Positions 10,946 through 49,536 of a DNA stretch of 64,000 nt are shown piece after piece. The stretch's first letter is position 1, and each line of letters opens with the position of its first letter. The notes under the pieces were generated by a model that was not told the origin of the DNA, made no database searches, and saw only the letters and a program-made list of their open reading frames with translations. The DNA lies in assembly GCA_964016885.1 (NCBI GenBank), contig OZ024743.1, positions 51,956,001 through 52,020,000 of the forward strand. The letters are read 5' to 3'. This DNA comes from Eledone cirrhosa. Its lineage: Eukaryota. The translations under genes were made by a program, and so were the position numbers.

Positions 10946-10949
10946 AATC

Positions 10950-16900: not shown

Positions 16901-19700
16901 TGTCTGTAGTGATGGTTTATTACCAATGTCTGTAGTGATGGTTTAATTACCAATGTCAGTGATGGTTTAATAACCAATGTCTGCATTGATGTTTAAAATA
17001 CCAATGACTGTAGTGATGGTTTATTACCAATGTCTGTAGTGATGGTTTATTACCAATGTCTGTAGTGATGGTTTAATTATCAATGTCTGTGATGGTTTAT
17101 TACCAATGTCAGTAGTGATGGTTTAATAACCAATGTCTCTATTGATGGTTTAATAACCAATGTCTGTAGTGATGGTTTATTACAAATGTCTGTAGAGATG
17201 GTTTAATAACCAATGTCAGTGATGATTTATTACCAATATCAGTGATGGTTTAATTATCAATGTCTGTGATGGTTTAATTACCAATGTCTGTAATGATGGT
17301 TTAATTATTAATGTCTGTAATGATGGTTTATTACCAATGTCTGTAGTGATGGTTTAATTACAAATGTCACTGGTTTAATTATCAATGCCTGTAGTGATGG
17401 TTTAATAACCAATGTCAGTGATGGTTTATTACCAATGTCATTGATGGTCTAATTATCAATATCTGTGATGGTTTAATTACCAATGTCTGTAGTGATGGTT
17501 TATTACAAATGTCTGTAGTGATGGTTTAATTACAAATGCAGTAATGATTTATTACCAATATCAGTGATGGTTTAATTACGAATGTCTGTAGTGATGGTTT
17601 ATTACCAATGTCTAAGATGGTATAATTATCAATGCCTGTAGTGATAGTTTAATTATCAATGTGTGTAGTGATGGTTTAATGACCAATGTCTGTATTGATG
17701 GTTTAATTACCAATGTCTGTAGTGATGGTTTATTACAAATGTCTGTAGTGATGGTTTATTACCAATGTCTGTAGTGATGGTTTAATTATCAATGTCTGTA
17801 GTGATGGTTTAATTACCAATATCAGTGATGGTTTATTACCAATGTCAGTAGTGATGGTTTATTACCAATGTCTGTAGTGATGGTTTAATTATCAATGTCT
17901 GTAGTGATGGTTTATTACCAATGTCTGTAGTGATGGTTTAATTACCAATGTCAGTGATGGTTTAATAACCAATGTCTGCATTGATGTTTAAAATACCAAT
18001 GACTGTAGTGATGGTTTATTACCAATGTCTGTAGTGATGGTTTATTACCAATGTCTGTAGTGATGGTTTAATTATCAATGTCTGTGATGGTTTATTACCA
18101 ATGTCAGTAGTGATGGTTTAATAACCAATGTCTGTATTGATGGTTTAATAACCAATGTCTGTAGTGATGGTTTATTACAAATGTCTGTAGAGATGGTTTA
18201 ATAACCAATGTCAGTGATGATTTATTACCAATATCAGTGATGGTTTAATTATCAATGTCTGTGATGGTTTAATTACCAATGTCTGTAATGATGGTTTAAT
18301 TATTAATGTCTGTAATGATGGTTTATTACCAATGTCTGTAGTGATGGTTTAATTACAAATGTCACTGGTTTAATTATCAATGCCTGTAGTGATGGTTTAA
18401 TAACCAATGTCAGTGATGGTTTATTACCAATGTCATTGATGGTCTAATTATCAATATCTGTGATGGTTTAATTACCAATGTCTGTAGTGATGGTTTATTA
18501 CAAATGTCTGTAGTGATGGTTTAATAACCAATGCAGTAATGATTTATTACCAATATCAGTGATGGTTTAATTACGAATGTCTGTAGTGATGGTTTATTAC
18601 CAATGTCTATGATGGTATAATTATCAATGCCTGTAGTGATTGTTTAATTATCAATGTGTGTAGTGATGGTTTAATAACCAATGTCTGTATTGATGGTTTA
18701 ATTACCAATGTCTGTAGTGATGGTTTATTACAAATGTCTGTAGTGATGGTTTATTACCAATGTCTGTAGTGATGGTTTAATTATCAATGTCTGTAGTGAT
18801 GGTTTAATTACCAATATCAGTGATGGTTTATTACCAATGTCAGTAGTGATGGTTTATTACCAATGTCTGTATTGATGGTTTAATAACCAATGTCTGTAGT
18901 GATGGTTTATTACAAATGTCTGTAGTGATGGTTTATTACCAATGTCTATAGTGATGGTTTAATTATCAATGTCTGTGATAGTTTATTACCAATGTCTGTA
19001 GTGATGGTTTATTACCAATGTCTGTAATGATGGTTTAATTACCAATGTCTGTAGTGATGGTTTAATTATCAATGTCTGTAGTGATGGTTTAATTATCAAT
19101 GTCAGTGATGGTTTAATTACGAATGTCTGTAGTGATGGTTTATTACCAATGTCTGTGATGGTTTAATTATCAATGCCTGTAGTGATGGTTTAATTACTAA
19201 TGTCTGTTGTGATGGTTTATTACCAATGTCTGTAGTGATGGTTTAATAACCAATGTCAATGATGATTTATTACCAATATCAGTGATGGTTTAATTATCAA
19301 TGTCTGTGATGGTTTAATTACCAATGTCTGTAATGATGGTTTAATTATCAATGTCTGTAATGATGGTTTATTACCAATGTCTGTGATGTTTTAATTATCA
19401 ATGCCTGTAGTGATGGTTTAATAACCAATGTCAGTGATGGTTTATTACCAATGTCATTGATGGTTTAATTATCAATGTCTGTGATGGTTTAATTACCAAT
19501 GTCAGTGATGGTTTAATTACGAATGTCTGTAGTGATGGTTTATTACCAATGTCTGTAGTGATGGTTTATTACCAATGTCTGTAGTGATAGTTTAATTATT
19601 AATGTCTGTGATGGTTTATTACCAATGTCAGTAGTGATGGTTTATTACCAATGTCTGTAGTGATGGTTTATTACCAATGTCCGTACTGACGGTTTAATTA
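10950..19700. repeat. Satellite array, consensus GTAGTGATGGTTTAATTACCAATGTCT (27 bp; 23, 24 and 26 bp variants)
   Basis: Uninterrupted tandem units over ~8.7 kb; two degenerate units also at 10289-10334. Confidence 0.97.
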
Positions 19701-19945: not shown

Positions 19946-20250
19946 ATAAAGTGAAATGACCGGAGACCAAATATGTTGAATTTCCATAATTTTTTTATTA
20001 CTATAAACAGTATGTACTTTTCAGTGGCCAGGATGTGTAATAACCCGATGACCTCATCAGGTGTAAATTGCATTGAGTGCTTTTTTCAATTTGCGTTATG
20101 GTTAATATTGCAGAATGACCAATTCTACCCAGTGGTAAACCACCAAATTTAAGCGTATATATATATATGTTCATCCCAGGTTCAATCGGTGGTAACCACA
20201 GTAAATAAGGTACTCAATACAAAGCAGAGTATAAATATTTAATATAGAAA

Positions 20251-22466: not shown

Positions 22467-24057
22467 TCTATATATATAAAACAGAAGATGTCTGTCTGTG
22501 TGTCTGTTTCCCTAAAACTCGAGAAGTACCCAACCGTTTTTTTTCAAACTCTACACATGTAACCCGTATAGCCCCGGAAGTGTTTTGAGCAAAAAAAAAT
22601 TTCAAATTATTCTGACCTAGGGATCGAATTAGTGAAGTGGCCAATGTCTGTACATAATGAGGGAGTGAGAGGGGAGAGAAAGAAACGGAGAGGCGGAGTG
22701 AGAAGTGGCTTTCTACTCCTCCTCCTCCTTCTCCCCATTCGTCACAGCGTTTTTCGATAGAGGGGAGAAATGTGAACGAGTTACAGAGAGAAAGAGTGAG
22801 AGTGAAAGAAACAGACAGACTAAAAGAGGGGGATAGCGGGAGAGAGAGAGAGAGTGACAAACGCCGTCTTTTGAGAGTTGTATGCGTCAAAGATACATGA
22901 CAGTTGAATAACTACTGCGTGTGTGTGTACGTGCGCGCGTGTGTGTGTGGGTTTGTGTGGGTTTGTGTGCGTTTGCATGCGTGAGTGTTTATGTGTGCGT
23001 GAGTGATTATAAACTCTCTCACATGGTCTGATGGAATTAACCCTTTAGCATTTACATTACTCTATATATACTATATTATTTTCATGGTAAAGGCTTTATC
23101 TCACATAATATAAAAATCTCATAGATTTAATATTATTTATTTTGAGAACAATACCTTAACCCTTTATAGTATTAATGTGAGTGAGTTATAAAGAGAAAGA
23201 GTGAGAGTGAAAGAAACAGACAGACTAAAAGAGGGGGATAGCGGGAGAGAGAGAGCCGCTGGAAGAGGGGAAGGAAAGCTATATGTCTTGCTGTCTGCAT
23301 TACGATACATATATATACACACACAGATCGCGTCATAATGACGTAATGCAGACAGCCAGACATACAGACAGATATTATAAGGGCGCAACGTTATATCTAT
23401 GTATCTATTTAAAAAGAAAGACTAAGAATTATAGAAAGAGATCGCTAAATCGCCTAATGCGGTCCCTAGGGTATTGAAAATTTGAAATATGTTTTGCTCA
23501 AAACACTCAGGACCATAAGTATTACATGTGTAAAGTTTGAAAACAATCGGTTGGGTAGTTCTGAAGTTTTACTGAGCTGACAGACAGACAGACATTCTCT
23601 GTTTTATATATATATATATATATAATTATATATTCGTGTACAGATATTTTTGCATACACAATAACAAAATATAAATAAACGTATTTATTTAACGAGGCTC
23701 AATAAGGATAAATATATATCAAATATATAAGAACCATAGAGCAAATCCCGAGTAACGCCGGGCCATTCTGCTAGCATATATATAAAACTGAGGATGTCTG
23801 TGTGTGTGTGAGTTTGAATCCCTAAAACTCGAGAACCACCCAACCAACTGTTTTCAAACTTTACACATGTAATACTTATGTTTCAGGGAGTGTTCTCAGC
23901 AAACATTTTCAATGCCCTAGGGACCGCATTAGGCGATTTAGCAATCTCTCTCTATAATTTTTAGTCTTTCTCTTTTAAGATAGATATATACATATAACGT
24001 CGCGCCCTTATAATATCTGTCTGTATGTCTGCATTACGTCACTTCCCTGAGGATGCC

Positions 24058-24582: not shown

Positions 24583-24621
<39 letters not shown>

Positions 24622-24662
24622 AAATAAATAAGTCAAATGTTTAAAATTTGGCTTCGTTTATT

Positions 24663-24721
24663 ACTGCTATATATATATATTTCGGTGAGAGCCATCTTTG
24701 GCTGTGACCTCTTCAGGCAGT
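24663..24721 (-). ncRNA. Type I hammerhead ribozyme in the 3' pLTR of PLE 1
   Basis: ACTGC CTGAAGA GGTCACAGCC-aaagat-GGCTCTCACC GAAA TATATATATA TA GCAGT. Confidence 0.85.
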
Positions 24722-27700
24722 CCGAATTAGTGTGGTAGAGACGAGTACACATGTTTTTGAGGTGTATAACTTTGTCAATACTCTGATATGCCCAGTTCCT
24801 GGTTGGGTTGTTATTTCACAGAGGAACTGGAATCATATGAATTCAAACAAACGAATTTCAGCGTCAAAGGGCCTCTTCTCCTCTCATTGGTCAGTTGTTA
24901 GAACATTCCTCAGTCAAAAGTCTATAGAAATTCGTTCTGAGGCAAGCCAATCTGTAGTTGTTGTTCTTGTTATTGTTAGGTACATCTGACCTCTATTCTT
25001 GTGTTGGTAGTGGTGTTATTGTTGGAGTCAGCTAAAAAATGTGATAAAGTGGTAGAAGGAATAAGATGGTAAAGGAACAAAGTAAAATAAAATAATCGGA
25101 TAAAATGTGTGTGTGTGTTATACCCATCTCAATGTTATAAATATTTGTAAGGTCAAACTTCCCATTGGTCAGTTTTGAGAGCATTCCTCAGTCCAAAGTC
25201 TATAGAAATTCTTTCTGGGGCGAGGCTCCCTGTAGTGTTTGTGTTTGCTATTGTTAAGTACATCAGACCTGTACCCTTATTTTGGTAGTGTTGTTGGTGT
25301 TGTGGTCAGCTTATGTCTTGCTGCTGCTGACAATTTAGAAGTATCTGTGTGTGTGTTTCTTCACCCCTCCTGCCACCATCTCCCGTGGGGGGGGGGTTCT
25401 GCCATGTATATGAAGAAATAGAAGGCAATAAAATGAAGTAAACAAAAAATAAATAATAGGTAGAGAATAAATGAAAAATTAATGAAAAGGTAATGAAAAA
25501 GTAATGAAAAGTGAATATGGAAAATGAAAAATGAAAATGAAAAGTGAAAAATAAAATGAAGATTCGAATAAAATAAGATAAAATGTGTGTGTGCTATAAC
25601 CAATCTCAAGGTCAGAAATGTGTTGGATAGATTGGTAGGAGGAACAAGATGGTAAAAGAATAAAACGAAATAGGATAATCAAATAAAATTTGTGTGTTAT
25701 AACCAATCTCAACTTAAATATAAATATAAGGTGATAAAGTGAAGAAAACAGAAAACAAATAACAAATGAATAATGAGAAATCAAAATTGAAAAATCAAAA
25801 ATCAGGTAAATTAAAATGTGTGTGTGTTATAAAGATGTTGGCCAAATTATAAAGGCTGTGTCAGAATCAATCTCTAGGCTATGATGGTGTCTTCTCAGCC
25901 TGGGTTGGTCCCTATGGCTTGAGGGGAGTTCCCAACCTATGGTGCTGTTACTGCCCATATAGCTTGAGGGAGGTTTGGCCGGGAGGTGTCTACATGTTAT
26001 GCAGAAGTCCCTATAGCTTGAGGGGAGTTCACATCTTATTGTGTTGCTACTGTCCATATATCTTGAGGAAGGTCCTGACCCTGAGGTGTCTGCATGTCCC
26101 GAAGAAGTCGGTTCTGAGGTTTATCAGGCGGCTTCCACCTCTTATTATCTCGAGGGTCTCGTTCAGACATAGTTTGCATATGCAAGATCCCCCTTTATCG
26201 GGTGGTATTTCCTGATTATGGACCAGGCCAGAGAGTACGGGGTCCTGTCCAGCTTAAGCTTCGAGATCAGGTCTGAGAGAGCCGTACTTTTCCTTTTGGC
26301 CTCCTTATTGAAGGAATGGCGATGGTTATACCAGCGGTCTTTAAAGCTCGTTGATGTGGCTCCTATGTAGAGGTGTTCGGAGTTGGGGTTTTAACTCTAC
26401 AACCGTATACTAGGTTCTTCTTAAGGCATTCATTACCAAGGGGGCATGATTCGGGGTTTCTGCAGTTGCAGAGGGTAGTCGACCTCTGCATGCCTAGATT
26501 GGGGTTCCCGTTAGGTGTTATATGGTGGTCTTCCCCCAGGCGCGGTGGGGGGTCCCCGGGTCTGTTTGGGTTTCTTGGGTGGGCACTGGCCCCCCCCCCC
26601 CTTCCCTCCTTTCACATGGTTCTGCTGAGTGCTTGTATTGCCATCTTCTGGTTGTGTGTGGTTTTTAAGCCTACTCCTGTTGATGCTAGCTATGTGTTGG
26701 GCCAGATTTCTCGTGGTGGAATACGAGAGCTTCACAGTGTGTCTGTTGAAGATCTTGTGGTATCTATGGTCCCTCGGGAAGCATTTATCAAGTACTCCAA
26801 AGAATGATCGGGCCAAGCTGTTCTTTAGGGCCGCTGAGTAGGGTGGGTTGTACCACGTGATTTTTCTGTGTCTCCTCCTATATATGTCGGAGGCGTCGTG
26901 AGTTGTTGGAGATTTGTTGGGTTGCTGGTGGTTCCCGCATTGTTGCTTCCCCTTTGGGCGCTATGCGTTTTGCTATCTTCACGGCCCGAATCTGCAGGGT
27001 GGTCGTTGCCCGCGCTGGGAGATCTACCATGGGGTTGTCCCCCGTTCCCCCTCCCCCACGTGTCCTGCAGTTGGGGTCGTCGGGCCCGAGGTGGTTAGCA
27101 TCACCCCTGAGACTGCTACTCATATTGGGTTTCATCCCATGGTTAAGTGTACTCATCACCAACGCCCGTGTGGTGGTGTCGGGCTCATGGTGCCTATTTG
27201 TTTTTGTACTGCCTGTATTGTTAGGGTTCGCCCCCCCCCGGGCAACGTGGGTGTGGGTGTCCGTTGGGCCATCCCCTTCCCGGCGTTTCGGACTGTATGT
27301 TATATTTTGTCCATGTGCCACATTATTTAGAGCTGCGTTGTAATATGCCGCGTTGTTATCGAATATTTCCTTACTTGCGGACAGGCTGGAGATCCTGTCC
27401 GAGACACTCTTCACCACGGCTTGGTTATGGATCTAGGGTGGTTTGACTTGGTGTTAACATACATGAGTTTCTCGTTGGGCTTGTGGTAGGGGTAGTATTG
27501 TTCGGTGTTCAGGTTTAGGGTGGTGTCTAGGAAGATAACTACCTTTCTATTTGGGTCTAGTTCTATGCTGAGCCCCTGGTTCTTAAAGAAATGGCGAATA
27601 CGCCTCCTCATTCCCTCCAACATATTGGTGCTGTGGTCATATACTGCGAAGAGAGCATCGTCACGATATAATCCACCTCCCAGGCAGGAGATTTCATCTT

Positions 27701-28926
27701 TTATCTGCTTCAGCAGGAAGAGCCCAACCAGGTCCGTTACCTGTGCTGAGTCGCTGGAGCCCATCGTGATGTCAAAGTTATTTGGCCAATCACTCCTGGT
27801 CCAAAGGTCTCCATCGAAACGGATTAAGGTCTTTCTTGCGGCGTGGATGATGCTCACCTCCTCTCGGGTTAGGTCCGTGTTGGACATCGCTAAAAATAGG
27901 GCCTTATTGAGTACTATGGGTGAGATTGAGGAGTAGTAGCCTGCGATATCCAGTTGTATAAAGCTGGTCTTACTTTTCTCATGTAGTATCTTAAACCATT
28001 CTATTACCTCTCCCGTGCATGACCATTGCTGTAATTTAGTTTTCTTCCGAAGCTTGGGCAAAATCATATCTAGTATTCTTTTACTGACGATCCCTAGGTC
28101 AGATCTGGAGGGGGGCTATTAGTCTGAAAGGGAGGTCGGACTCAAAGTTTGGCTTGTGATCTTTCAGGGTAATCCGCGGCTCCCTTGGTTGGTATGGGGC
28201 CGTCCTGTCCTCTATGCCGAGTCCAGATATAATCCTGTAAGCTGTGGCATTGATCTCATCCAGGGTAAATCCAGGTGTTTTTTGTAGCACTTCCTCACTT
28301 CCCTGAGAATTATCTTATTATACAGTTCAGTGTTCATGTTGTAGAGGTTGTTGGCTTTGTCAGCATGGACAAGTATTCCAGTTGTCTCTTTAAGTACTGT
28401 AATCCGGTTTCTCAGGTGTCTGAGGTACTCCTGACTTCTGGTTGGGTTTCCGGAGAATTTGAGGTTGGATATGATGTTAATCATCTCGTTTTCAAACTCT
28501 TCCATTAGTCTGTTGTGGGAGGGCGGGTCCTCCTTGATCGAAAAAGGTACTCCATGTTTTGCGTGTTGGCAATTTTTTGCGTTCCTCTTTCGAAGTGGAA
28601 CGCTTTCCATCTCATCCTACGGACGAGGGAGTCCGTACTCTTGATGAGATCACTGGTGTATTCTCGTTTGTCAGGTAGGGGGGGGGGTCCTTCAGTGACG
28701 CTAAGGTTGCCAGTTTTTCCATAGTGACTTAAGTCCGCTACTGTTTGAAGCGCTCAACCCGTGGGGGAGCTAGATAAATTTTGAGTATATGTTGGTTGTA
28801 TATCAACACCTCAGTATGCAGATTGGAGCACTCGACGAAGTGCGCAGGTTGGTTTGCTTACTCTGGAGTAATGTAAAATAAAATAAAATAAATAAGTCAA
28901 ATGTTTAAAATTTGGCTTCGTTTATT

Positions 28927-28982
28927 ACTGCTATATATATTTTCGGTGACAGCCATCTTTGGCTGTGACCTCTTCAGGCAGT
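28927..28982 (-). ncRNA. Type I hammerhead ribozyme in the 5' pLTR of PLE 1
   Basis: ACTGC CTGAAGA GGTCACAGCCA-aaga-TGGCTGTCACC GAAA ATATATA TA GCAGT. Confidence 0.8.
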
Positions 28983-29349
28983 CCGAATTAGTGTGGTAGA
29001 GACGAGTACACATGTTTTTGAGGTGTATAACTTTGTCAATACTCTGATATGCCCAGTTCCTGGTTGGGTTGTTATTTCACTGAGGAACTGGAATCATATG
29101 AATTCAAACAAACGAATTTCAGCGTCAAAGGGTCTCTTCTCCTCTCATTGGTCAGTTGTTAGAACATTCCTCAGTCAAAAGTCTATAGAAATTCGTTCTG
29201 AGGCAAGCCAATCTGTAGTTGTTGTTCTTGTTATTGTTAGGTACATCTGACCTCTATTCTTGTGTTGGTAGTGATTTTGTTCCTTTACCATCTTATTCCT
29301 TCTACCACTTTATCACATTTTTTTTAACTGACTCCAACAATAACAATTA

Positions 29350-32254
29350 CTTGCCATAACGTCACAACATATAGAAATTATAACATTTAACATTTTCATA
29401 AGAATATATTTAAAGCATAAAGCACAAAAAAAAAACTCTTTCATAAGAATATATTTATAAAATATATTTAAAGTATAAATTTTAGGTTATACCACATATA
29501 CATAAAAATCACTAAGTTTATCATATATATATATAAACATTTGGATATATATGTATTAAGCATTTGAAAAATATAAGAATATAGAAATATAAAATACACA
29601 ATATAATACCGGTAGAGGAATTAAAAAAAAATTTTCCTTAATTCATTCAGTAGGTTTATCAAGAAAAATCTTTTCAAGAAAAAATTATATTTTCTTTAAG
29701 GGAGTTACAAGCAGTCATATAAAAGGAATCTAATGATTTATCGATAGATGTGATAATAATAGAGGATATTATGTAAAAGAGATGAGTTATATATTACATT
29801 TTATATATATATTTAAACGTTGAATTCAACCGATGTTTACAAGAACTAAATTATTCCTTAAATTAACAGAATTCTTACTTTTTAATATAAAGAATATTTC
29901 CTCTATACAAAGAGCACAATTTTCAGATGAAGCATTTAATGAAGGAGCTTTGGAGATAATATTCCAAAGTAAAGAATAGTTAATGTTCTTTGATTTTAGG
30001 TCCCATAGTAAATTAGATAGAGAAGTTGAAAATTTTTTACTAATATTCGTAAAAGAGCATTTATGGTTATTAAAACGGGACTTAAAATCTGTGGAGGTAG
30101 AGCCTACATAATTAAAGGAATTTATATTAGTTTTTACATTACAATTGTATACTATATTTTTAACTAAACAATTATTATTTAGAGGACAATTAGATTATTT
30201 CTACAGTTACATTTATCTAAATTTAAGTTACTATGAGCCGTACTATTATATTGGATATTGCTAGGGTTATTAATGGTATTCTGGTTAGGTTTTAAGTTTC
30301 TATTATTAATTCTATTAATATTCTGCGCTAAATTACGATAATTTTATAGTATGTCTATTAAATATTGAGTAATACCTATGTGTTCTAGGAAAGCATTTAT
30401 CTAGAGCTTTAAAGAATAATTTAGCAATAGGAGTTTTAATACTTAATGAGAAAGGGGGAGCGAACCATAATATATTCCTAGTTCTATTTCTTTTTTGTTT
30501 TTCGAGTTATTGTAAGGTTTTCTATTATAGTTTTTTTTATTTATGGTTAGTTGGCACATCATATTATCAATGTATTTAATTTTATTACTATATCCAGCTC
30601 TACATAACACTTCGTTATAATATTGTGCTTTATCTTCAAAAATATTCTTATTAGCTGAAATTCTAGAAATACGTTGCTGCACAGAATTTACTATAGTGTT
30701 TTTAACGGATCTGGGGTGATTGGAATTAAAGTTAACATAGTTTAAGTTCTCATTTATTTTGTGAAATGGATAATAAAGACCAGTGTTAAGGTTTAAAGTT
30801 ACATCTATAAAGTTAACTATTTTATAATTATTCTCTACTTCTACTTTAAGAGTAAGGCAATTAAAAAATTGTATAATTTCTTTTCTTTTCCTATTTATTT
30901 CACAGTTATTATTATTTTCTATAAGTAATAGCATATCGTCACGATATAAACCTCCGGTCATCTCCGGTAATTTCCTATGTAGAGTATTATTAATAAAAAG
31001 CCCCACAAGATCCGTTATTTGTGCGGAATTGGATGACCTCTTAGTAATATTGAAATTACTAACTCTGTCTGCTTAGTCCAGAGTTGGTTGCTAAATTTAA
31101 TTAATGTTTTCCGTTCAGTTAAGATAATGTGCATTTCATTACTAGTTAAGTCTGTATGTTTAAATGTATATGTGAGGGCTTTATTAAGTAGATTAGGAAT
31201 AATGGATTAGTAATAATTAGCAATATCCAATTGAATAAATTTATTATTATAGTTATATTTAATGTCCTTAAACCAGTCGATAACTTCATTAGTCCCTTTC
31301 CATAATTTTAAATAAGATAATTCCTTAATTTGTGGTATGATTCTGTCTAAAATAAGTATGCCAAGGTCTGATTTAGATGGTGCAATCAATCTAACTGGTA
31401 ATTCAATTTCAAAATTTATTTTATGGTCCTTCATATTAATTTTTGGTTTCCTAGGCATGAAGGGTTGTGTCCTATTTTCGATGCCTAATTCCTGCATTAT
31501 GTAAGAAGCTTCCGTATTTAGTTTTTCAAGGTCATCACTGGTTGTTTTTTTGTATTTCTTCCTTAATTCCTTCAATATAAGATCGTTATAAATATCCTTT
31601 TGCATTCCATAAAGATTGTTGGTTTTATCTGACTTGACTAGAATTTTTTCCGTTTTTTCAAAGCTTTCTATATTATTTTTGAGATTTCTTAGGTAATCCT
31701 GGCCTACGAAGTTGTTTTTTTTAAAATTTAATGCTTTGTATGATAGAGATGATCTCATTTTCAAAATCCATTAGTAGTTTGTTGGAAGGTGGATTCTTTT
31801 TGTATTTGAAGATTCTATCGAGATTGGAAATATTCTCATTCGCATCAGATTTATCGAAATGAAAAGCTCGCCACCTGAGTCTTCTTATAAATGAGTCCGA
31901 TTTTTCTATGAGTTGTTTTATAAAGTCTTTATTCCTAGGTAAAGGTATGTCCTTTAGAGAAGAAGAGATCTTAAAGAATTCCATTTTTATTCAGTTATAA
32001 TTTAAAGCGCTCAACAGTAAAGGAGCAAAATATATGCAGAGGTTATATTTAATTTGTTGGGATACAACAAGCTAAAATATTTTTATAACTGATATAAAGC
32101 ACTCAACAAATTGTTGGAGTAAATATACAATATATTAACAAATGGAAACTATATTTATAAAACCATATTTATTCTATTATACATATTTCAAGGGCCACCA
32201 AGGCAGATTATGGTGCGCTTTCATCAGATAAAATATAATACAGATTAGTTTTAT

Positions 32255-32302: not shown

Positions 32303-34865
32303 GAAGGAAATGTGGTAAGGAACCAGGTGGACCATAACGCACCAAAGTACTCAATACTTAGGGTAGTAGAGTGGGTAATAGGAACGAGTAGGACCCCGAC
32401 GGCTGAGCTCAAGCCGTTTCGACGGCTAATTCTGGACAGCTAATTGAGTCCAGAATTAGCCGTCGAAATAGAACACACTCACTGTTTGGTTGGTTTTCGC
32501 TTCTGTGTCTTTTATATCGGTTAATTTAATTTATTCGGTCCTCAATGTTACCATTGACTGACCAACGGTCAAAAATACAGATACAATATAGACACAAACA
32601 CATATATATAGTCTAACAAAGTTCTTTCGTTGCACATCTGCAACATCGTCAGTGGTGCTATTATGTTTCCTCCCGTTGTATTGTATGCTTACGCCATCTT
32701 TATTTAGTCTGTTTATTTATTTATTTATTTATTTATTTATATTTTTGTCTTCTCTGCGCGTGCGTTTGCGTGTGTGTATAGTGTTTTGTTTGATGTGTGT
32801 TCGTGTTTGGGTGACTGTGTATTGGTTATTGTATTCTATCTTAGTTTACTAGTGTGTGTTTATATGTGTGTGTTGTTATTGTGCTTGTGTATGTATTTAT
32901 TTATTTATACCTCTCTTAGGTCAGTGTTGTTTGTTTGGGTGTTGTTATTCCATTCATTTTTTCTGTTTAGCCTTGGCCTTCTAAGTTCTATTCGCTGGCC
33001 TCTCTGATTTGCCTATCTGCTGGGTCATTTCTATGTTTAGATATTATTCTAATTTCTATGTTGTCTATGTTACCGTCATGTTGTTGTCTGGCATGTTCGT
33101 ATAGTACTGAACCGTTTTTCGTCCTTTTAGTTCCCCCCAGTGTTGGTCTATCCTTTCACCTATGCTACGAGCTGTCTCACCTATGTATGTTGTTGTCATG
33201 TTTCTGCAAGTACCCTCCGTACATCTTATGCTATAGACTACGTTTCTAGTTTTACAGTTTATCCGGGGGTTTACTTTACATATAATACATTTCCTATTAG
33301 TACAGTGGGTTTTCTTAAAAGGGTAGGTTTTGCTGATCAGGGATTTCATGGTGGTTCCTGGCTTTTCTACCACCTTAATCTTTAAGTGGGTCTTTCTCAA
33401 GGCCTTTCTACACTGGTTAGCTAATTTCCCTCCAGGGGTAGCGTCCACAAACATGACACTCTGGTATCTCTGGTTGTCGTACCATGAGTTGGCTTTCCCT
33501 ATCTTATGTCTAGTCCTATCTAAGCTATTCCATGATTTGCTCCTGTATAATGGGCAAATTCCTTTCATGTCCATTTATATGAGGGTCTTATACTTCTCCG
33601 TGGCTCCTTCGTATACTCTGATTCTGTCTCTTTGGTTGTAGCCAGAGAACTGCATGCGGTTGATGAAGTATTGGATGTGTCTTTCCATTTCTGTTGGGTC
33701 GCACATGCGGGACACGTTCTTAATCACTCGTACCAAGTTTGCGATCAGAATATTAAACTTAGCACTACTGGACATTGCTGAGTTTTTGAGTATCAGGTAT
33801 TTTGAGGCCATGGGTTTAGTATAGTGTGAGTGGAGAATTTGGGCTCTCTCGTCTATAGTGTTAATCCAGAGTTCCGTGTCTAATACAGGTAGTCTATTGT
33901 TAGGGTGTTTGGAAGGGTAGTCGATAGTTACAGTTATACTCTGGTGTATGGAATTAGTTATCTGCTGGATGCTTTCCATTGTGCTACGTTCTAAATCAAA
34001 CTTGTTAGTACTCTCTTGTGGGGATGTCCTTATTACTATATTGATGTTGTCTACGTAACGAGAGTACATGATGAGGTCTATGGAGCTCTCATCAAGATCT
34101 TTGAGTCTCCTTTCCCACCATACCATAAAAAGGTTGGCAACGTCACCAGCTATGCTGACGCCAATGGCTGCTCCCTCATTTTTGGTGTAGATCTTCTCGT
34201 TGAATTTGAATATGTGGCCTTTTAGGGTAGTTTTGATACTAGCCACTATTGCATGTGCGACCATTTTTCTTACCTGATCATTGTTTTGGGGGGTCCGTAT
34301 AGCTTTGATCCACCCAATCCACCTTCCCATGGGAGTCTTTTTTGCCATTGAGGTTATGGTGGGGGGTCTACCTCTTATGGGTCTACTAGGGCAGAAACGT
34401 CTAAGGTCATGGCTGTCTAGGTAGTCAGTGTCATAGGTAAGTCTAAGTAGGAGACCCAGTTCGTCTGTGTCGACGTCGCAGAACTCTACCTCACTCTCAA
34501 TGATCATCTCCACACATTTTTCCACAGCAAAATCAATGTTAATGGATGGGTAAAGTGATACCACATCCATACTGCCTATTATGCAGTTGGATAAGTTCCT
34601 GTTTTTGTTGCACTCAATGATTCTTCTGAGGAGGTCCTCTGTACTGTCACATACATCTGGGGACATCTTGATTATGGGGCGTATAACCATTGAGAGGAAG
34701 TAGGAGATCCTGTAGTTGCTAGCTATATTTGTTCCGCATACAGGTCTTGTTGGTGGTCCTGTTGTCGGGTCGTCGACTGTCTTGTGGTCTTTGCGGAGCC
34801 CATACAAGGGTGGTATGCCATTGTTAGACCCTCCCCAAGTATAATAATATTTGTTTCGACACACG
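32295..34865 (-). mobile_element. Penelope-like element 3 (Naiad-like), 5'-truncated
   Basis: ORFs 33575-34864 and 33065-33574: RPVC, GSMDVVSLYPSI, GAAIG, SRYVDNI, LPVLDTELW, KPMAS, MQFSGY, FVDATPGGKL, VVEKPG, Cys-rich linker, VVY..YIGETARS..ER..H. Split by one TAA stop. Clade call is from memory of motifs. Confidence 0.85.
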
Positions 34866-34888
34866 ATTTCATATCAAAAACCTCGCAA

Positions 34889-34923
<35 letters not shown>

Positions 34924-35009
34924 TAAGTTATTCAGGGTTGAATCGGAAGTAACCACAGTAAGTAAGGTACTCAATACATAGCAGAGTATAACAGTTTTAA
35001 TATAGAAGA

Positions 35010-35582: not shown

Positions 35583-38500
35583 TTACAGATATATACTCAG
35601 AGTAGGCCCATTCACTCGGGCCATTCTTGCTTCTCTCACCCATCTTTCAACAAAATGCTGGGAAGAGAGCACTTCCCTCTCTACTCTGATTTTCCTTTTC
35701 AAATGAAATTTGAAAAAGTCAATCAGAGCATCACCAAAGAGGTAAGTGCTCGTCTTCAGCCCTTTCAAACGTGTCCACCATACTATCTCTTTCGCCATGG
35801 CCACCAGACAGATAAAAACTGCCTGCCCTTCCCGGCTAAAGGAGGAGGGCGGGGCAATCCTCACGATGGACTCAGATGATAGCCGGATCCGTCCTAAACG
35901 CGACAGCAGGTGTTCGACATAAACCCACAAGTCAGCAATTTTCGGACACTGGACGAGTGCGTGCAGGACGGTTTCGTCGCCCTGATCGCATCTCGGACAT
36001 GCCCGGCTGATGGCACCTCCATGCCTGTAGAGTTTATCCCGAACTGGCAAGGCTCCTCGGTAGCACTGCCAGGCCAGAGATTTCTGGAAGTTGTCCATAG
36101 GCCCTGGCCCGAAAGTTCTTCCGAAGAGATTGGCTAGTTGATTTTCATCGACGCCTAGAGTTTCTCCAAGTACGTCGTCGCTCTTCCCCTCCACTAATCC
36201 TCTATAGAACGCCGAGGTGGAGTTTCCACCGATCACATTGCCCGATTGGTCGAGGGCTGTGAGCGCCTGAAGACATTCCAGTCTCCAGGCGCTCCCTCTC
36301 GGTTTTCGTTTGACCCAGGACTGCAGCTCCGTCAAGGAAACGAGCTGGGGAAATACGTGTCTAGCAAACGGCGACCACACCTGATCACCGTCGAGGAAGA
36401 GGTGGAGATGTCGTAGCCTGAGCGCGTGCCTGCGCATCATCAGCCACGGCATGCCCAGCCCTCCACGTAGCGGGTGTTGACAACAGATGGACCGCCTGAC
36501 CATCGGAGCGCGTCCCTTCCACAAAAAGCGAAAGAGCAAACGCTCCAGCGCAGTCAGGCGAGGCTTAGGACAAGGTACGACGGTCAGGCGGTAGCAGATG
36601 ACAGACGCGATGTACGCGTTAGCCACCTCCGCTCGACCTTTCAGGGATAGCTTCCTCTCCGCCCATTTCTGGGTGAGAGAAGCCACCCTGCTCGTCACCT
36701 CGTCCCAGTTTTTGTCCGTCTGGAGGTCCGGACCGAACCAGACCCCTAGCAATTTAACCGGTCCGTCCGTCCAGCGTCCGACGACGCTGTTGGACGGCAT
36801 GGACCTGCCTCTCCAGGTGCCGAGCTGCAGGCCCACTGACTTTTCCTGGTTGATCATTGCTCCTGTCACCGCTTCGTATTCTCTTAGTGTAGTGCCGATC
36901 GCCTCGATGTGTTTGGCGTTCGACACCACTACGGTGACATCGTCCGCATATGCTGACACGGATCTTCCGCATCCTAGTTCGCGCGGGACGCCCCTCAACG
37001 TCTCCAGTTTGTGCAGTAATGGCTCGAGAGTCAATACGTACAAGAGGGACGAGAGGGGACATCCTTGGCGGACCGAGCGCATGATGTTGAACGGTTCCGA
37101 CAGGTGACCGTTCACTCTCACCACAGAGCAGATGTCGCTGTGCATGGCAGCGATCCAGCCTCTGAAGACGGGCCCAAAGCCAGCCGCCCTCAGGACTGCC
37201 GCTAGGTAACGATGCTCGACCCTATCGAAAGCTTTCGACTGATCTAAATTGATCAAGGACCCACCCGTGCCAGGTTCCCTAGCTACCCTCTCTACGATGT
37301 ATCGCATGAGGTGGAGGTTGTCGTGGATGGATCTGTCGGGAATGGCGCATGTCTGCGCCTCTCCCACCAGACCACCAACGACAAGCGCCAACCTCTTTGC
37401 TAGCACCTTGGCCAAAATCTTGAACTCTGTGTTTAGCAGAGTTATGGGCCGGAAATTATCTATGTTATCCCCCTTGTTCGGATCCTTTCTCAGCAGTGCC
37501 ACCGCTCCTCGGCTCACAGAACTGGGAATTCTCCCGTTCTGTTGCCAGTTGCAGTAGACGTCCGCCAAGAGGCCTCCGAACAAGTCTGGCATCTGTACGT
37601 AAAGTTCATAGGGCAGACCATCCAAACCAGGCGATTTACCCCTTGTGCAGCCAGTCATTGCCTCCCTTACTTCAGCGGCTGTTATCGGCTTTTCGCAACA
37701 CTTCGCCTCAGTGGCCGAGAGCCGCGGCAGTCCGTCGAGGTAGACACTAAAGTCCATCCCTCGACCCGGCCCACCGCTGCCCCGGAACAGCTGAGCGAAG
37801 TGTCGCTGAAAAGCTTCACACATTTGCCCGGGATCGAGTAGCATGCGCCCGTCGTGGTCCACCAAAGACCGGATCGTGGCTTTGTTGCCACGACGCGCTT
37901 CCGCCACTCGGGCCCATTGAACGGCTTTCGTCCCCTCGTGTCTGAGAGCACGCACCCTTGCTCTAACAACGCAGCCTTCGTGCTTTGCATTGAAGAATTG
38001 GTCAAGGGCCAATTTCGCCGCAAGCACGTCGGTCGCAATGCCTTTGCTAAGCGCCTCGTCTAATTTTTTAACTAGTTCTCCCTCTGCTCTATTTTTCTCT
38101 ATTGCTAAAGCCTTACTAAACCTAATGGATTCTATTCTAATCGCTCTTTTCAGAGCAAACCACCACTTGTTGTTGACGATGGCCCCCGTCAACGCCCGCT
38201 TAACTAGTTCGCTAATCCGGTCTCTGTAGGCCTTGCGCGCTGGTAAGGACGCGTTTAGCTTCCAGTAGCCGGGTCCTCGTCTATGAAGCCTATCTAAGTC
38301 AAGCACACAGATCACGAATTTGTGGTCCGTGTAGCTGACTATCTTGAATTGTGGACAGCCTATGCTAGACCTATCTATTTCCCTACAAAATACTCTATCT
38401 AGATATGATCTGGATGACCCTATGCGATTTGTCCAAGTCCACATTGGCACATTCGGGAAATCCAATCGGTACCTGTCAGACAGTTCAAAACGCCTGAGCA

Positions 38501-39002
38501 GGTTGGTGAGGCTCTTGCACCCTCCACCCCTATCCGCTAATCCCACACAGTCCCAGCGTGCATCTAAGATCCCGTTCCAGTCGCCCACTAACACTAAAGA
38601 GCGGGACGTTCCAAGAAAGGTCTCCAGACGCCGGAAGAAATCAGGCCGCCCTGCTCCTGTCGGGGCATAGACGGCCACTAGCCTGAAAGCTTGCCCGTCT
38701 CCGCCGGTCACGTCCAGCACCACCAGCTTACCCTCTGGGTCCAGGAAGATGGCCCGTATGGCGAGATCCAAACCTCTCCGAAAAAGCACAGCAACTCCTC
38801 CCCCCGATCCAGGACGGCTGGGAGATGCGTACACATCGTAGCCGCCGAAGATCGGTGCGAAGGCCCGTGCTTCGGAGATTCTGGTCTCGCTGATGGCCAC
38901 TACATCTATGTTTAGTGACCTGAGGTCGTTGAGCAGGTGACCCTGCTTCCATGACGACCCCAAGCCACGCGCATTTATGCTGCCTATTCTGAGTGAGATC
39001 AT
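35583..39002 (-). CDS. ORF2: APE endonuclease + reverse transcriptase + C-terminal CCHC, intact 1139 aa
   Basis: SINARGL, ISET, VYAP, GDWN, YLDR, TDH (APE); KSPGLDG, FRPITLLN, DQSKAFDRV, VRQGCPLS, AYADD (RT); CPRC..ETVLHALVQC. Confidence 0.93.
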   Translation of the reverse strand: MISLRIGSINARGLGSSWKQGHLLNDLRSLNIDVVAISETRISEARAFAPIFGGYDVYASPSRPGSGGGVAVLFRRGLDLAIRAIFLDPEGKLVVLDVTGGDGQAFRLVAVYAPTGAGRPDFFRRLETFLGTSRSLVLVGDWNGILDARWDCVGLADRGGGCKSLTNLLRRFELSDRYRLDFPNVPMWTWTNRIGSSRSYLDRVFCREIDRSSIGCPQFKIVSYTDHKFVICVLDLDRLHRRGPGYWKLNASLPARKAYRDRISELVKRALTGAIVNNKWWFALKRAIRIESIRFSKALAIEKNRAEGELVKKLDEALSKGIATDVLAAKLALDQFFNAKHEGCVVRARVRALRHEGTKAVQWARVAEARRGNKATIRSLVDHDGRMLLDPGQMCEAFQRHFAQLFRGSGGPGRGMDFSVYLDGLPRLSATEAKCCEKPITAAEVREAMTGCTRGKSPGLDGLPYELYVQMPDLFGGLLADVYCNWQQNGRIPSSVSRGAVALLRKDPNKGDNIDNFRPITLLNTEFKILAKVLAKRLALVVGGLVGEAQTCAIPDRSIHDNLHLMRYIVERVAREPGTGGSLINLDQSKAFDRVEHRYLAAVLRAAGFGPVFRGWIAAMHSDICSVVRVNGHLSEPFNIMRSVRQGCPLSSLLYVLTLEPLLHKLETLRGVPRELGCGRSVSAYADDVTVVVSNAKHIEAIGTTLREYEAVTGAMINQEKSVGLQLGTWRGRSMPSNSVVGRWTDGPVKLLGVWFGPDLQTDKNWDEVTSRVASLTQKWAERKLSLKGRAEVANAYIASVICYRLTVVPCPKPRLTALERLLFRFLWKGRAPMVRRSICCQHPLRGGLGMPWLMMRRHALRLRHLHLFLDGDQVWSPFARHVFPQLVSLTELQSWVKRKPRGSAWRLECLQALTALDQSGNVIGGNSTSAFYRGLVEGKSDDVLGETLGVDENQLANLFGRTFGPGPMDNFQKSLAWQCYRGALPVRDKLYRHGGAISRACPRCDQGDETVLHALVQCPKIADLWVYVEHLLSRLGRIRLSSESIVRIAPPSSFSREGQAVFICLVAMAKEIVWWTRLKGLKTSTYLFGDALIDFFKFHLKRKIRVEREVLSSQHFVERWVREARMARVNGPTLSIYL

Positions 39003-39037
39003 GTTTAAAATAGAGTGGAAAAGATGGGAAAGACCAC

Positions 39038-41129
39038 TTACCGTACTTTTCGTAGAGGAGGGATGGTTTTTACATCCCTTTTCACTTGATCGTCTGGTGA
39101 AGGGACCGTTGAATCGTCCCTTCGGCTGGTCGTCGGCTCTTCTATGAGTATGTCCGAATATACTCTTCGATTGATAGTTCCTCCTAGGTCCCTGAAATCA
39201 CCAACTGCGTTGGGGAATTTCGTTTTAATGTTTGTGTATTGTTTCTGTGCTATTTTTAGCAGTCTTATGTTAGTTGGCGTTTTGATTGGTGCTGGTATAA
39301 TGTAGTCGTGTTGTGAAATATCTGTGTGTTCAATTATGTAAGTCATTAGTTTCTTGTTGTGTGTATTTATTGCCGTGCATTTGTTTTTCTGGGGGTGGGG
39401 TGTGGTTCTGCTATTTTCTTGTCGTTGTTGCTGGGTGTGTGTGTTTTGTTGTTGTGTTTGCGATGTTGGTGCTTGTGGTGGTGGTGTTGAAGGTGTTGTT
39501 GGCGGTGGGGTTGTCGCCGGTGGTGATGGTGGTGCTAGTGTGGGTGGTGATGGTGTTGGTGGTGTTGCTGCTGTGAGTCTCTTTGCAGTAGACTTTACCC
39601 TTTTCTCATTTCTTTCCTCCCTTTTCAAAGGCGACGATGCGCTGCTTCTGCGTTTGTGCCTTCTTACGACCTTTTGCCATCCCTCTCCCACCTCACACTC
39701 CATGTCTGATTCTGTGAGGTCGGGGAGGGCTACCAGTTCCACTCTTTCACTTGTTGTTGTTGGTGATGTTTGCACTGGAGTCTCTGTTGCAGTTGCATTT
39801 GGTATTGCTGTTGTTGTTGTTAATATTTCCACTGCTGCTGCTGTTTTTGATTTCCGTGGCGTGGGTATGGGTGCCACGGACCTATCGTTCCTGGTTGCCG
39901 CTTGTCCTGTTGCTGGTAGCCGTGGAGCCGGTTTCAGAAGGAGGGGGGTTTTCTCCTTTCTCAGGGTCTTCTCGTTGCAGAAGGCCCTGAGGTGAGTCTT
40001 CGATCCACAGCGAAAGCATTTCGGGCGTTTGCCCTCAACACTTATGGGCAGTTGAGTGCCGTTATCGAAGTCTATCACATCCGGGATAGCTTCGATGCAC
40101 TCCTGGTTGGTTTGTATTAACATCTCAATGGAGGTGCCGACCCAATCTTCTCTTACTTTTTTCTGTACTTGCAGTACAGTTGTTTTGTCCTCGATTCCGA
40201 CGAGGACAGACGCGGCCAGCCAAGAAGGGGCCATCCCGGGGGGGGGGGTTCAGTTTGACCCTCACAATTTTTTGCCCGCAGTAGGAGGGCACCAACACCA
40301 TTTCCTCGCTCCTTAGGGTCACTACGGATTGATCCTTTGCCTCCTGGGGTGTGGCAAAAAGTACGTCTACGGTGGCATATTTTTTTGCCTCGGGTGATGT
40401 GCGTTTTCCGCTGCCACACAGACCCCAAGGCTTTTTGTATTTGAGCCTCTGTGGCTCTTTCAACCCTACGGGATTTTGTACTTACTGTACGGTACGTGAC
40501 CGTACAGTGCTGTTGGGTTTCGAAAAATTTTCCGCTGCCTTGCAGATTGCTCGGTGTCCAGTCTTTGTCACCATCTTCTTCGCTTCCTCTAATTCCTCAT
40601 TTGTTATGAGGATTGTTTCCAGGTTCTTCGCGATACCTGCAAACGAGATTGGTTTTTCTTTGCTGCTGTTGTTGTTGTTGTCGTCAGAGCTGCTGTTACT
40701 TTTGTTGTTGCTGCAGGTACTACGACTACTGCCTCCGCCGCTGTTGCTGTGGTTGTTGTTGGTGTTGCTGCTGCTAATGCTGTTGTTATTTATGCTGCTG
40801 GTGATGCTGTTGCGGCTGCTACTGTTGTTTTCATTGTCACTGTTGCTGTTGTTATTACGGCTGCTACTGCTATTATTCCTGACGTCAGACGAATGAAATG
40901 GGTTTTCGTATTTCCCGCACATCTGTTTCGTCGTTGTCGTGGAGAAATCTTGCACGCTTTGCACAAGACTTTTCTTTTCTGTCGTCGCTTGCGAAAGAGA
41001 AGGGAGGGAGAGAGACACATTTGAAGAAGGGGGGGAGAGAGACAATCTTTTCTCTGCTGTAGTGATGATTGAGGAAGAAGAAGACGGAATGAGTGGGAGT
41101 GACCTATGAAAATTCTTTTTCGTAACCAT
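39038..41129 (-). pseudogene. ORF1 (gag-like, CCHC zinc knuckle), interrupted
   Basis: Pieces 41129-40482, 40463-40125 and 40234-39038. CFRCGSKTHLRAFC knuckle; stop at 40482; frameshift at the G run near 40240; Asn/Ser-rich and Pro/Thr-rich tracts. Confidence 0.8.
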
Positions 41130-41354
41130 GTTGTTTTTTTTTGTTTAAAATAAATATTGGGCACAAAACCCCAATAAGCAGTTATTTAACCCCGAAGGGC
41201 CAAATAACGGGCAGAAAGACCCCTCTCACGAGGAGGAGGGTGTTTTTGTCTACAAGTTCGTTAAAGTTTTAAACAATTTACAATTGTTATAGCGTTCAAA
41301 ATTTACAATACCTTACATAGCATAGCATTCAATAATAATAATAATAATAATAAT

Positions 41355-44316: not shown

Positions 44317-44318
<2 letters not shown>
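41355..44318 (-). mobile_element. Tx1/L1-clade element B, 5'-truncated, ORF2 disrupted
   Basis: ORFs 44318-42726, 42689-42225 and 42132-41686 are homologous to ORF2 of element A; (AAT)n on both sides. Confidence 0.92.
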
Positions 44319-44344
<26 letters not shown>

Positions 44345-44347
<3 letters not shown>

Positions 44348-44670
44348 GACACGAGAGTGCAAGAGAAGGAGAGGGAGAAAATTAACCGATACTAGGACTT
44401 AAAGTGGGAGGTAAAAAGGATTTGGAACTGCCATGAAGTCAAAGTGGTCCCCATTGTCATAGGCGCACTAGGTACTATCTCAAAAAGTTTCCAGAGATGG
44501 TTAAAGAAAATTGGCCCCTTCACGCTTTTTGGAACGCTTCAAAAGGCATGCTTGCTGGGAACAGCAAGAACCCTCCGATACGTCCTGAATATCTGAGGCT
44601 GCAGGTAGTGGCTTGATATTCATTTCAACAAACTTTCCAGTTAACTAACATCAATGACTGAGACTCAAAG
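44345..44670 (+). mobile_element. 3' fragment of an R4/Dong-like RLE non-LTR retrotransposon
   Basis: 44345-44596 translates YDTRVQEKEREKINRY*DLKWEVKRIWNCHEVKVVPIVIGALGTISKSFQRWLKKIG..LQKACLLGTARTLRYVLNI*; (AAT)n on both sides. Confidence 0.85.
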
Positions 44671-44691
44671 AATAATAATAATAATAATAAT

Positions 44692-47600: not shown

Positions 47601-48680
47601 ACGCCCGCTTAACTAATACGCTAATCCAGTCTCTGTAGGCCTTGCGCGCCGGGAAAGACGCGTTCAGCTTCCAGTAACCAGGCCCTTGTCTATGAAGTCT
47701 GTCTATGTCGATCTCACAGATCACAAATGTGTGGTCTGTGTAGTCGACTATTTTAAATTGTGGACAACTTATACTAGCCTTATCTAGTTCCCTGCAGAAT
47801 ACCCTATCTAGATACGATCTGGATGACCCGATGCGGTTTGTCCATGTCCACATTGGCACATTCGGGTGATCCAGTCGATACCTGTCAGACAGTTCAAAAC
47901 GTCTGAGCAGGTTGGTGAGGCTCTTGCACCCACCTCCCCTATCCACTAGCCCCACACGATCCCAGCGTGCATCCAAGATACCGTTCCAGTCGCCCACTAA
48001 CACTAAAGAGCGGGTCGTTCCAAAAAAGGTCTCTAGACGCCTGAAGAAATCTGGCCGTCCTGCCCCTGTTGGGGCGTAGACGGCTACTAGCCTTAAAGCA
48101 TTGCCTTTGCTGCCGGTCACGTCCAGCACCACCGACTTACCTTCTGGGTCTAGGAAGATGGCCCGTATCGCGAGATCCAAGCCTCTCCGAAAAAGGACGG
48201 CAACCCCTCCCCCCGATCCTGGACGGCTGGGAGATGCGTATACATCGTAGCCGCCGAAGATCGGTGCGAAGGCTTGTGCTTCGGAGATTCTGGTTTCACT
48301 GATGGCCACCACATCTATGTTTAGTGACTTGAGGTCGTTGAGCAGGTGACCCTGCTTCCAAGATGACCCCAGGCCACGTGCATTTATACTGCCTATTCTG
48401 AGTACGGCCATGTTGGATGAGAGACGGGGCAAGTGAGAAAGGGTCACTTACCTTGATCGTGTGGTGAAGAGACAGTAGAACCGTCCCTTTCGCTGGTCAT
48501 GGGTGTTTCCAAGAGGATGTCAGTGTATATCCTCTTGGTAACCGACCCTCTGAAGTCTCCAACTGCGTTGGGGAATCTTTGTTTTAAAGGTTTGTACTGT
48601 TCTATTGAGATTTCGATGATGCTTATGTTTGTCGGGAGAGTTCTTGGTGTTGGTGGGGTGTAGTAGTTTTTTTCTGTGAT
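44692..48680 (-). mobile_element. Tx1/L1-clade element C, 5'-truncated in ORF1; ORF2 has one frameshift and a premature stop
   Basis: ORFs 48447-47368 (APE) and 47378-45189 (RT) are highly similar to element A; ORF1 C-terminal remnant at 48448-48660; 3' end at (AAT)n 44671-44691. Confidence 0.92.
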
Positions 48681-48804: not shown

Positions 48805-48984
48805 CAAAGTTTGTTTTATAAATTTTGACATAACCAAGGAGAATATACCTTAACGGTTCAAGTTCTATCCAGGGATAACTTGAACCGTTAAGGTATATTC
48901 ACCTTGGTTATGTCAACATTTATAAAACAAACTTTGTATACCATCAACACCATAAACACAGAGTGGCATATCTAAGAACTGACT

Positions 48985-49470: not shown

Positions 49471-49536
49471 TATTTTATTATACATATTTCAAGGGCAACC
49501 AAGGCAAATTATGGTGCGCTTTCATCAGATAAAATA
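49471..49536 (-). ncRNA. Type I hammerhead ribozyme motif (left palindrome arm)
   Basis: Reverse complement of 49685-49750. Confidence 0.8.

Follow-up and report, generated by a model that had tools for sequence, protein, structure and literature searches.

Penelope-like elements (PLEs) of the Hydra clade carry a C-terminal endonuclease and are marked by the motifs RWK, DKT and CxCX5C, a short single open reading frame (ORF), a hammerhead ribozyme and insertion into (TA)n targets; their pseudo-long terminal repeat (pLTR) is accompanied by a one-sided tail and an inverted copy (PMC8557442; this and the other papers cited are represented by the accessible parts of their text). How PLEs choose their template, and how the one-sided tail and inverted ends arise, is an open question (PMC8557442, PMC11167929). 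The present analysis concerns a twin hairpin motif in the 5' untranslated regions (UTRs) of two such elements, PLE1 and PLE2, in a 64,000-nucleotide (nt) stretch of the 3.0 Gb genome of Eledone cirrhosa (assembly GCA_964016885.1, contig OZ024743.1, positions 51,956,001 to 52,020,000), called the window here and the source of all coordinates. Copies of these elements almost always end just 5' of one or the other hairpin, and the hairpins are probable start signals for the reverse transcriptase (RT) of the element.

The nearest described behaviour is that of the Poseidon element PAc of Anolis carolinensis, in which both target strands are extended and internal starts match the limits of the tail (PMC11167929). 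PAc needs RNA reaching to +172, beyond its starts at +111-118, and its protein is predicted to form a dimer (PMC11167929). The likeness to the elements described here lies in the internal starts downstream of the hammerhead, at the pLTR end and at the tail end, and in the requirement for RNA 3' of those starts. However, PAc belongs to another clade, its starts lie inside the ORF and its tail measures 30-40 nt, compared with 71-184 nt here. The accessible account of PAc describes one AC-rich stem-loop that contains the start and no repeated motif 3' of each start. This AC-rich stem-loop was considered as a model for the present motif and rejected, as the ends here lie 5' of the stem and the loops are not consistently AC-rich. 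In the PAc template printed in PMC11167929, positions +126 to +139 can be read by eye as a short stem built around CUC/GAG. It begins 7 nt beyond the starts at +111-118, inside the required RNA, and as a single case may be due to chance.

In long interspersed nuclear elements (LINEs) as well as in R2, structures at the RNA 3' end include a stem-loop that is recognised by the RT of the element and selects both template and start. Those signals occur once, 5' of the start, and become part of the copy, whereas the hairpins here are doubled, lie 3' of their presumed starts and would be left uncopied from their own start site. Small bulged stem-loops bound by proteins are also known from the iron-responsive element, HIV TAR and hepadnaviral epsilon, the last of which primes an RT. 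These have a 5'-side bulge and conserved loops, in contrast to the 3' bulge and free loop found here, and the iron-responsive element was ruled out for lack of a conserved loop. Among 41 matches to Rfam 15 covariance models (E<=1), none overlaps any hairpin site and none reaches the gathering score.

The twin hairpin was not found described in the literature covered, in which the two internal starts of PAc (PMC11167929) come nearest; subscription papers, Repbase or Dfam notes, and figures could mention it. In the accessible text of PMC8557442 the Hydra clade is described with no RNA element beyond the hammerhead, and the terms 'hairpin' and 'stem-loop' do not occur in its main text. The accessible parts of PMC4209133, bioRxiv 10.64898/2026.07.22.740005, PMC3846280 and PMC7229834 contain no description of the motif.

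Read in the sense of the elements, the motif opens across families with RCTC, after which 1-7 upper-stem pairs enclose a free loop; a 2-nt 3' bulge (UU, UC or UA) then leads into GAGY, which is often followed by RCT. The lower stem RCTC/GAGY has 4 base pairs (bp), and the whole measures ~20-45 nt. An earlier note on this DNA had described a plain 4-bp stem and loop, which is corrected here to a bulged stem with lower stem, 2-nt 3' bulge and upper stem, the first pair of which also covaries. The nine sites it claimed are all present at their coordinates with the expected letters, including the 29-nt spacer of PLE1, and the swap from ACTC/GAGT to GCTC/GAGC is seen in both PLE1 and PLE2. Its hammerhead-to-motif distance of 15-55 nt becomes ~42-71 nt when counted from the GAAA of the core. 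The sites it placed behind the hammerheads of other families are real, but the one at 32374 is part of an F0 stub, F0 being another Hydra family, and not of the element at 32400-34873. Two copies do precede the start codon as claimed, at no fixed distance from it: hairpin 2 lies 20-29 nt before the ATG in seven of eight references and 65 nt before it in F0. The hairpins of PLE1 and PLE2 are placed as follows.

32101-32120, minus strand: PLE2 hairpin 1, with ACTC, a 3-bp upper stem, a TT bulge and GAGT
32030-32126, minus strand: PLE2 'tail' of ~94 nt between the two end sites, containing hairpin 1
32009-32026, minus strand: PLE2 hairpin 2, with GCTC, a C-G pair, a TT bulge and GAGC; the ATG follows 24 nt on
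28830-28869, minus strand: PLE1 hairpin 1, with ACTC, a TC bulge and GAGT
28752-28770, minus strand: PLE1 hairpin 2, with GCTC, a 3-bp upper stem, a TT bulge and GAGC; the ATG follows 29 nt on

The upper stem of PLE1 hairpin 1 has 6 bp in other copies of the family and one mismatch in the window copy. A 14-bp palindrome makes up the 5' side of hairpin 1 in most PLE1-family copies (e.g. L047; window 28858-28871) and competes with the hairpin in predicted folding. This palindrome could serve RNA dimers or a switch.

The genomic 3' ends of a retrotransposon mark where cDNA synthesis began. Genome searches with the two UTRs gave copies that stop where hairpin 1 begins or a little short of hairpin 2, and many of them form inverted pairs with one end of each type. 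Tail-less copies of the PLE2 family stop 2-7 nt 5' of hairpin 1 and tailed copies 3-9 nt 5' of hairpin 2. Mapping against five references that represent four families placed 84 of 96 ends abutting a microsatellite within -14..+1 of a hairpin, i.e. from 14 nt before it to 1 nt into it. The 5' regions of four further families were fetched, with L194 left out of end mapping; in the three held-out families, whose second hairpin was found after prediction, all 51 ends lay at a hairpin (46 from F0). Overall, 166 copies were matched, of which 147 abutted a microsatellite, two read through and 17 ended elsewhere. Ends within -14..+1 of hairpin 1 (59) or hairpin 2 (76) made up 135 of the 147, in intervals that cover 9-15% of the reference length. 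The 45-nt filter used under-detects very short arms near the hammerhead. An earlier mapping with queries that contained microsatellite or inverted junctions put 140/180 ends near hairpin 1; it was noisy and is replaced by these counts.

The spacing between the two hairpins varies from 71 to 184 nt between families, and the ends follow it. Mirrored pairs with their tails outward comprised 40 mixed pairs, one same-type pair and six that were unclassifiable, i.e. 40/41 of those classifiable were mixed. An offset of -6 fits 53 of 88 junctions, more than any other offset. Contig depth in sequencing run X1 drops ~400-fold at hairpin 2 of a PLE1-family UTR, where contig depth is not a copy number and X1 is possibly the assembly's own source. 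Loose (TA)n ends occur 4 nt before hairpin 2 in run X1 and in run X4, which is listed as another organism. The tie to element ends holds in every family tested, while the tie to the start codon is weak.

The same two stopping points recur in the window. Copies stop at hairpin 1 at 24617, 57686, 48692, 49421 and 50075, and at the hairpin 2 position at 20163, 32300, 34923, 49871 and 62988-63054. The earlier note had observed that the motif is missing from the pLTR copies at 24617 and 57686, and this is borne out, as their alignments stop 8 and 4 nt short of hairpin 1; these short copies lack the motif because element ends fall just 5' of each hairpin.

24614-24741, minus strand: PLE1-family pLTR without tail, stopping 8 nt before hairpin 1, in (TA)n
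57683-57810, minus strand: PLE1-family pLTR without tail, stopping 4 nt before hairpin 1, in microsatellite
49421-49871, no single strand: PLE2-family mirrored insertion; the minus arm stops at hairpin 1, and the plus arm has hairpin 1 at 49800-49819 and stops ~3 nt before the hairpin 2 position
20212-20230, minus strand: hairpin 1 of a tailed F2 stub
34969-34987, minus strand: hairpin 1 of a tailed F2 stub
32349-32372, minus strand: hairpin 1 of a tailed stub of Hydra family F0
63127-63151, minus strand: hairpin 1, carried by the tailed arm of a mirrored stub, whose partner arm at 63354-63462 (plus strand) stops just before the hairpin
23697-23742, minus strand: hairpin 1 of family F4 in the GCTC/GAGC form, an extra copy beyond the earlier list

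The abundance of the motif was assessed in a genome sample of 116 evenly spaced 10-kb stretches (1.16 Mb). A descriptor with matched R/Y, at least two upper pairs and a TT, TC or TA bulge gave 117 matches, compared with 24 in reversed sequence and 20 with R/Y crossed; chance matches therefore exist, at a background of ~20 per 1.16 Mb. Variants with a TG bulge or a 3-nt bulge gave 11 and 17 matches, respectively; looser bulge classes gave 81-123, which are not comparable. One match antisense to a LINE ORF (window 43593-43623, also in L090) shows the A-U/G-C swap but has no downstream end, and was set aside. Enrichment downstream of hammerheads was confirmed: of 65 hammerhead-like cores, nine are followed by the paired pattern within 200 nt. 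Controls gave one upstream, one and two on the opposite strand, none with R/Y crossed and 1.4% in random windows. Some of these 65 cores are false, since reversed sequence gives 23 hammerhead-like matches.

A microsatellite lies 20-85 nt downstream of 94 of the 117 matches. These 94 group into 35 sequence clusters, which show a lower pair of A-U in 23 and G-C in 12, a first upper pair of U-A in 24, C-G in nine and A-U in two, and a bulge of TT in 16, TC in 10 and TA in nine. As this descriptor-derived set had been chosen for pairing, a pairing-blind test was run on 194 CTC..THGAG sites with (TA)n 25-85 nt downstream. The lower pair and two upper pairs are present together in 82 of these, compared with 53 of 1451 such sites elsewhere. 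Covariation also stands in this test: the lower pair holds in 16 of 23 multi-copy clusters (nine A-U, seven G-C; shuffle mean 7.7, p 0.0001) and the first upper pair in 14 (seven U-A, five C-G, two A-U; shuffle mean 6.6, p 0.0005), kinship being ignored in both p values. At upper pairs 2-3, G-U outnumbers A-C by 17 to 3 (controls: 9 vs. 8), a bias that speaks for the sense strand as the one that pairs.

A canonical second hairpin is found in six of eight families (PLE1, PLE2, F0, F4, L061f and L065f), the other two carrying variants, and hairpin 2 reads GCTCC..G-TH-GAGC in all six. The families are ~35-60% identical in protein, and some hairpins of the L061 family were placed by eye. The F2 family (L214, L241-L270; window sites 20232 and 34990) has at least 40 copies that are 99-100% alike over the UTR and ORF start, indicating that it moved recently. 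Six published Hydra consensi were also read by eye (File S7 of PMC8557442). The sea cucumber consensus Hydra-1_Ajap starts 2 nt before hairpin 1, hairpin 2 follows after 61 nt and the ATG 29 nt later, while Hydra-2_Ajap and the coral Hydra-2_Amil have hairpin 1 in a 3' extension, near the 3' end. On these three sequences, the motif is likely common to echinoderm and cnidarian Hydra elements besides those of the present genome. The earlier note had placed the motif downstream of PLE hammerheads in several families; it is not general to PLEs, being missing in 14/14 tailed arms examined from non-Hydra hammerhead families. The non-Hydra hammerhead families of this genome also show two ends.

The hammerheads themselves vary among the Hydra families. 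In every F4 copy examined (L276 and others among L272-L295), the hammerhead-like core ~70 nt ahead of hairpin 1 reads CAGAAGA in place of CTGANGA, with stem II and GAAA intact; this is possibly a core variant or a dead ribozyme. F0 and L065f (L127, L353-L358, L314-L321) have TTGAGAA or CTGAGAA cores, like the U3-A8 variant in the accessible text of PMC4209133.

These observations are best brought together if each hairpin is an RNA signal bound by the RT-endonuclease of the element, with cDNA started ~6 nt upstream, a reading that is considered probable. Of what would mark an RT-recognition element, a position fixed relative to genomic 3' ends is seen in 135/147 ends and compensatory structure in the lower and first upper pairs. 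The proposal in the earlier note of a conserved cis-acting RNA element thus survives as a conserved structured element for which RT or ribonucleoprotein binding fits best. Its ribozyme-partner option lacks support because the hammerhead distance varies and hairpin 2 lies another 71-184 nt on, and its translational-control option sets a weak link to the start codon against a firm link to the ends.

In the proposed mechanism, the hairpin structure would form in the sense RNA and a protein dimer would hold both hairpins of one RNA while cutting both strands of the (TA)n target. One cDNA would then be primed at each DNA end, one before hairpin 1 and the other before hairpin 2, and the two would join head to head at their far ends to give a tail-less and a tailed arm. 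The difference in arm length would equal the hairpin spacing, and the segment between the hairpins would be the PLE 'tail'. Such a mechanism would explain why the tail is one-sided, why each family has its own tail length and why mirrored pairs are mixed. As every new copy would lose hairpin 2, only RNA reading from a pLTR into both hairpins, by tandem read-through or from a circle, could be recopied, which agrees with the circular-template idea in the accessible text of PMC4209133. In the fuller proposal, on which judgement is evenly balanced, a dimeric RT related to telomerase would take its start signal from the tandem hairpins and copy a single RNA from the two ends of a double-strand cut. 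The tail would be the hairpin distance, inverted pLTRs would arise as a matter of course and the absence of hairpin 2 from every new copy would explain why only tandem or circular transcripts transpose. A similar logic with other motifs may extend across PLE clades.

Several alternatives to RT recognition bear on the same data. The hairpins might act in DNA, with the GIY-YIG endonuclease recognising single-stranded cDNA or another intermediate and cutting a few bases 5' of each. Identical ends and pairing would be predicted, and G-T pairs are possible in DNA too; Craig et al. see the tail as a result of resolution by the endonuclease (PMC8557442), and Frangieh et al. cite the need for a tail in DNA recognition by the Drosophila virilis Penelope endonuclease (PMC11167929). 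This is nonetheless thought unlikely, given that internal RT starts on RNA were measured at the tail limits in Poseidon (PMC11167929) and that the bias to G-U over A-C fits a sense strand, which first-strand cDNA is not. Ends that fall a few bases 5' of the stems would also suit hairpins that direct RNA cleavage or termination, the RT then starting at the resulting 3' ends in ordinary target-primed copying; RNA-seq reads do end at the Anolis start sites (Frangieh et al., PMC11167929). However, two separate RNA pools would make about half of all pairs same-type, as opposed to the single such pair among 41, and RNA processing is considered quite unlikely.

That the hairpins are mainly 5' UTR signals for translation or splicing, coinciding with the ends through another cause such as TA microhomology, is suggested by the position of hairpin 2 20-29 nt before the ATG in seven of the eight references and by its constant GCTCC..G-TH-GAGC. 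The AG that precedes the CTCC of hairpin 2 in PLE1, F0 and L061f, together with the 5' UTR intron of Penelope (PMC8557442), would fit splicing. Against this, the ATG distance of 65 nt in F0 excludes a fixed link to the start codon and hairpin 1 is unrelated to the ATG, while PLE2, F4 and L065f have no AG, so that the invariant AG of a 3' splice site is found in only three of six canonical families. Nor does TA microhomology alone explain the ends, as other TATA/ATAT sites in these UTRs were used three times among 89 junctions and the F0 UTR has none, yet F0 ends lie at its two hairpins in 32/32 cases. A main role as UTR signals is therefore very unlikely, though the hairpins may have a second role in translation, e.g. 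if the protein represses its own synthesis. Lastly, the flanks of the PLE2 hairpins resemble each other by eye, as they would if the motif were an old local duplication devoid of present function. Compensatory changes across 35 clusters, in families as divergent as these are in protein, and the end mapping both contradict this, and it is given hardly any credence.

A number of points weigh against RT recognition by twin hairpins as set out above. The second position of F2 holds a plain 4-bp GCAC/GTGC stem, 7-9 nt past the tail end and 25 nt before the ATG; the L194 family shows a bulge of 1 nt in hairpin 1 and an uncertain hairpin 2, and three of the six published consensi (Hydra-1_Amil, Hydra-1_Obim and Hydra-1_Crog) match only partly. 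The (TA)n targets blur the junctions, and a single fixed offset is not established. Upper pairs 2 and 3 do not reach significance when the clusters are tested blind to pairing (p 0.12 and 0.41), and the clustering used there merged some families. The clusters are related, so the swaps are not counted as independent; the tree of the N-terminal piece was unresolved, with four of eight rows usable. Predicted folding gives the lower stem a probability above 0.5 in only 11 of 16 sites, and 0.01 for PLE1 hairpin 1, and across the 16 sites thermodynamic folding does not tell sense from antisense. The three core pairs CUC/GAG are invariant (24 rows, in an alignment selected for pairing), and recognition of the sequence itself may thus be as important as pairing. 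In addition, Frangieh et al. found the start sites alike on the two strands (PMC11167929), and the AC-rich stem-loop of PAc contains the start, whereas the Hydra hairpins lie 3' of it.

The two host elements are decayed but, judged by their motif set, PLE1 and PLE2 are Hydra-clade PLEs. The N-terminal RWK motif appears as RMRWKAF in PLE1 and RLRWRAF in PLE2, and the DKG to DKT change is seen in PLE2 and in the PLE1-family copy L047, the window's own PLE1 having DKA at this position. The CxCX5C linker reads CNCRNPESC in PLE1 and CNCRNKSNC in L171, with YVG/YIG of the GIY-YIG endonuclease downstream, and both elements have a hammerhead in the pLTR and (TA)n insertion. PLE1 and a PLE2-family protein share 53% identity over 232 amino acids of RT. 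Pfam returned no family for four ORF fragments of PLE1 and PLE2, nor for fragments at 33065-34873; its RT matches elsewhere in the window are LINE-type.

29800-31984, minus strand: PLE2 ORF, decayed, Hydra-clade RT plus GIY-YIG, with RWR, DKT, GLYRDD and a CxCX5-like linker; 3' limit approximate
26056-28722, minus strand: PLE1 ORF, decayed, Hydra-clade, with RWK, GLYRDD and CxCX5C; 3' limit approximate
32186-32227, minus strand: PLE2 minimal hammerhead core, within the pLTR
28941-28977, minus strand: PLE1 minimal hammerhead core

Other elements surround them in the window. The element at 32400-34873 (minus strand; also e.g. L095, L117, L121) is a non-Hydra PLE with YVDN and a CX4CxxC linker, Neptune/Nematis-like by motif. 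In related families the two ends are separated by 43-58 nt and TTTCRACAC stands 5 nt behind the first end; a similar word precedes the second PAc start. At 32417-32470 the 3' UTR of another PLE contains a stub of F0 that folds back on stem II of the hammerhead; the short arm of this stub stops right after GAAA and not at hairpin 1. Mirrored pLTR stubs form long fold-back palindromes at 48808-48933, 49421-49800 and 63151-63462, which give sub-threshold microRNA matches in Rfam. Three related LINE copies (35583-48447, minus strand), 86-91% alike, encode APE endonuclease, RT and zf-RVT. A broken RT element of another type lies at 3557-6928 (minus strand) and a long satellite array with a 24-27-nt repeat at 10281-19400. 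Retrozyme-like tandem units of ~467 nt with a minimal hammerhead occur in L098, L101, L112, L115 and L119, with no Hydra hairpin within 220 nt.

PLEs are the closest relatives of the telomerase RT. With a two-part motif of ~20-45 nt that predicts both ends, the question of how the PLE tail and inverted ends arise becomes open to direct test. The motif also marks the end in the annotation of stubs, of which this genome has about a quarter of a million, as extrapolated from the 1.16 Mb sample. The hairpin pair is also a candidate portable signal for internal, two-ended RT insertion, and would likely explain the one-sided 'tail' of these Hydra-clade elements.

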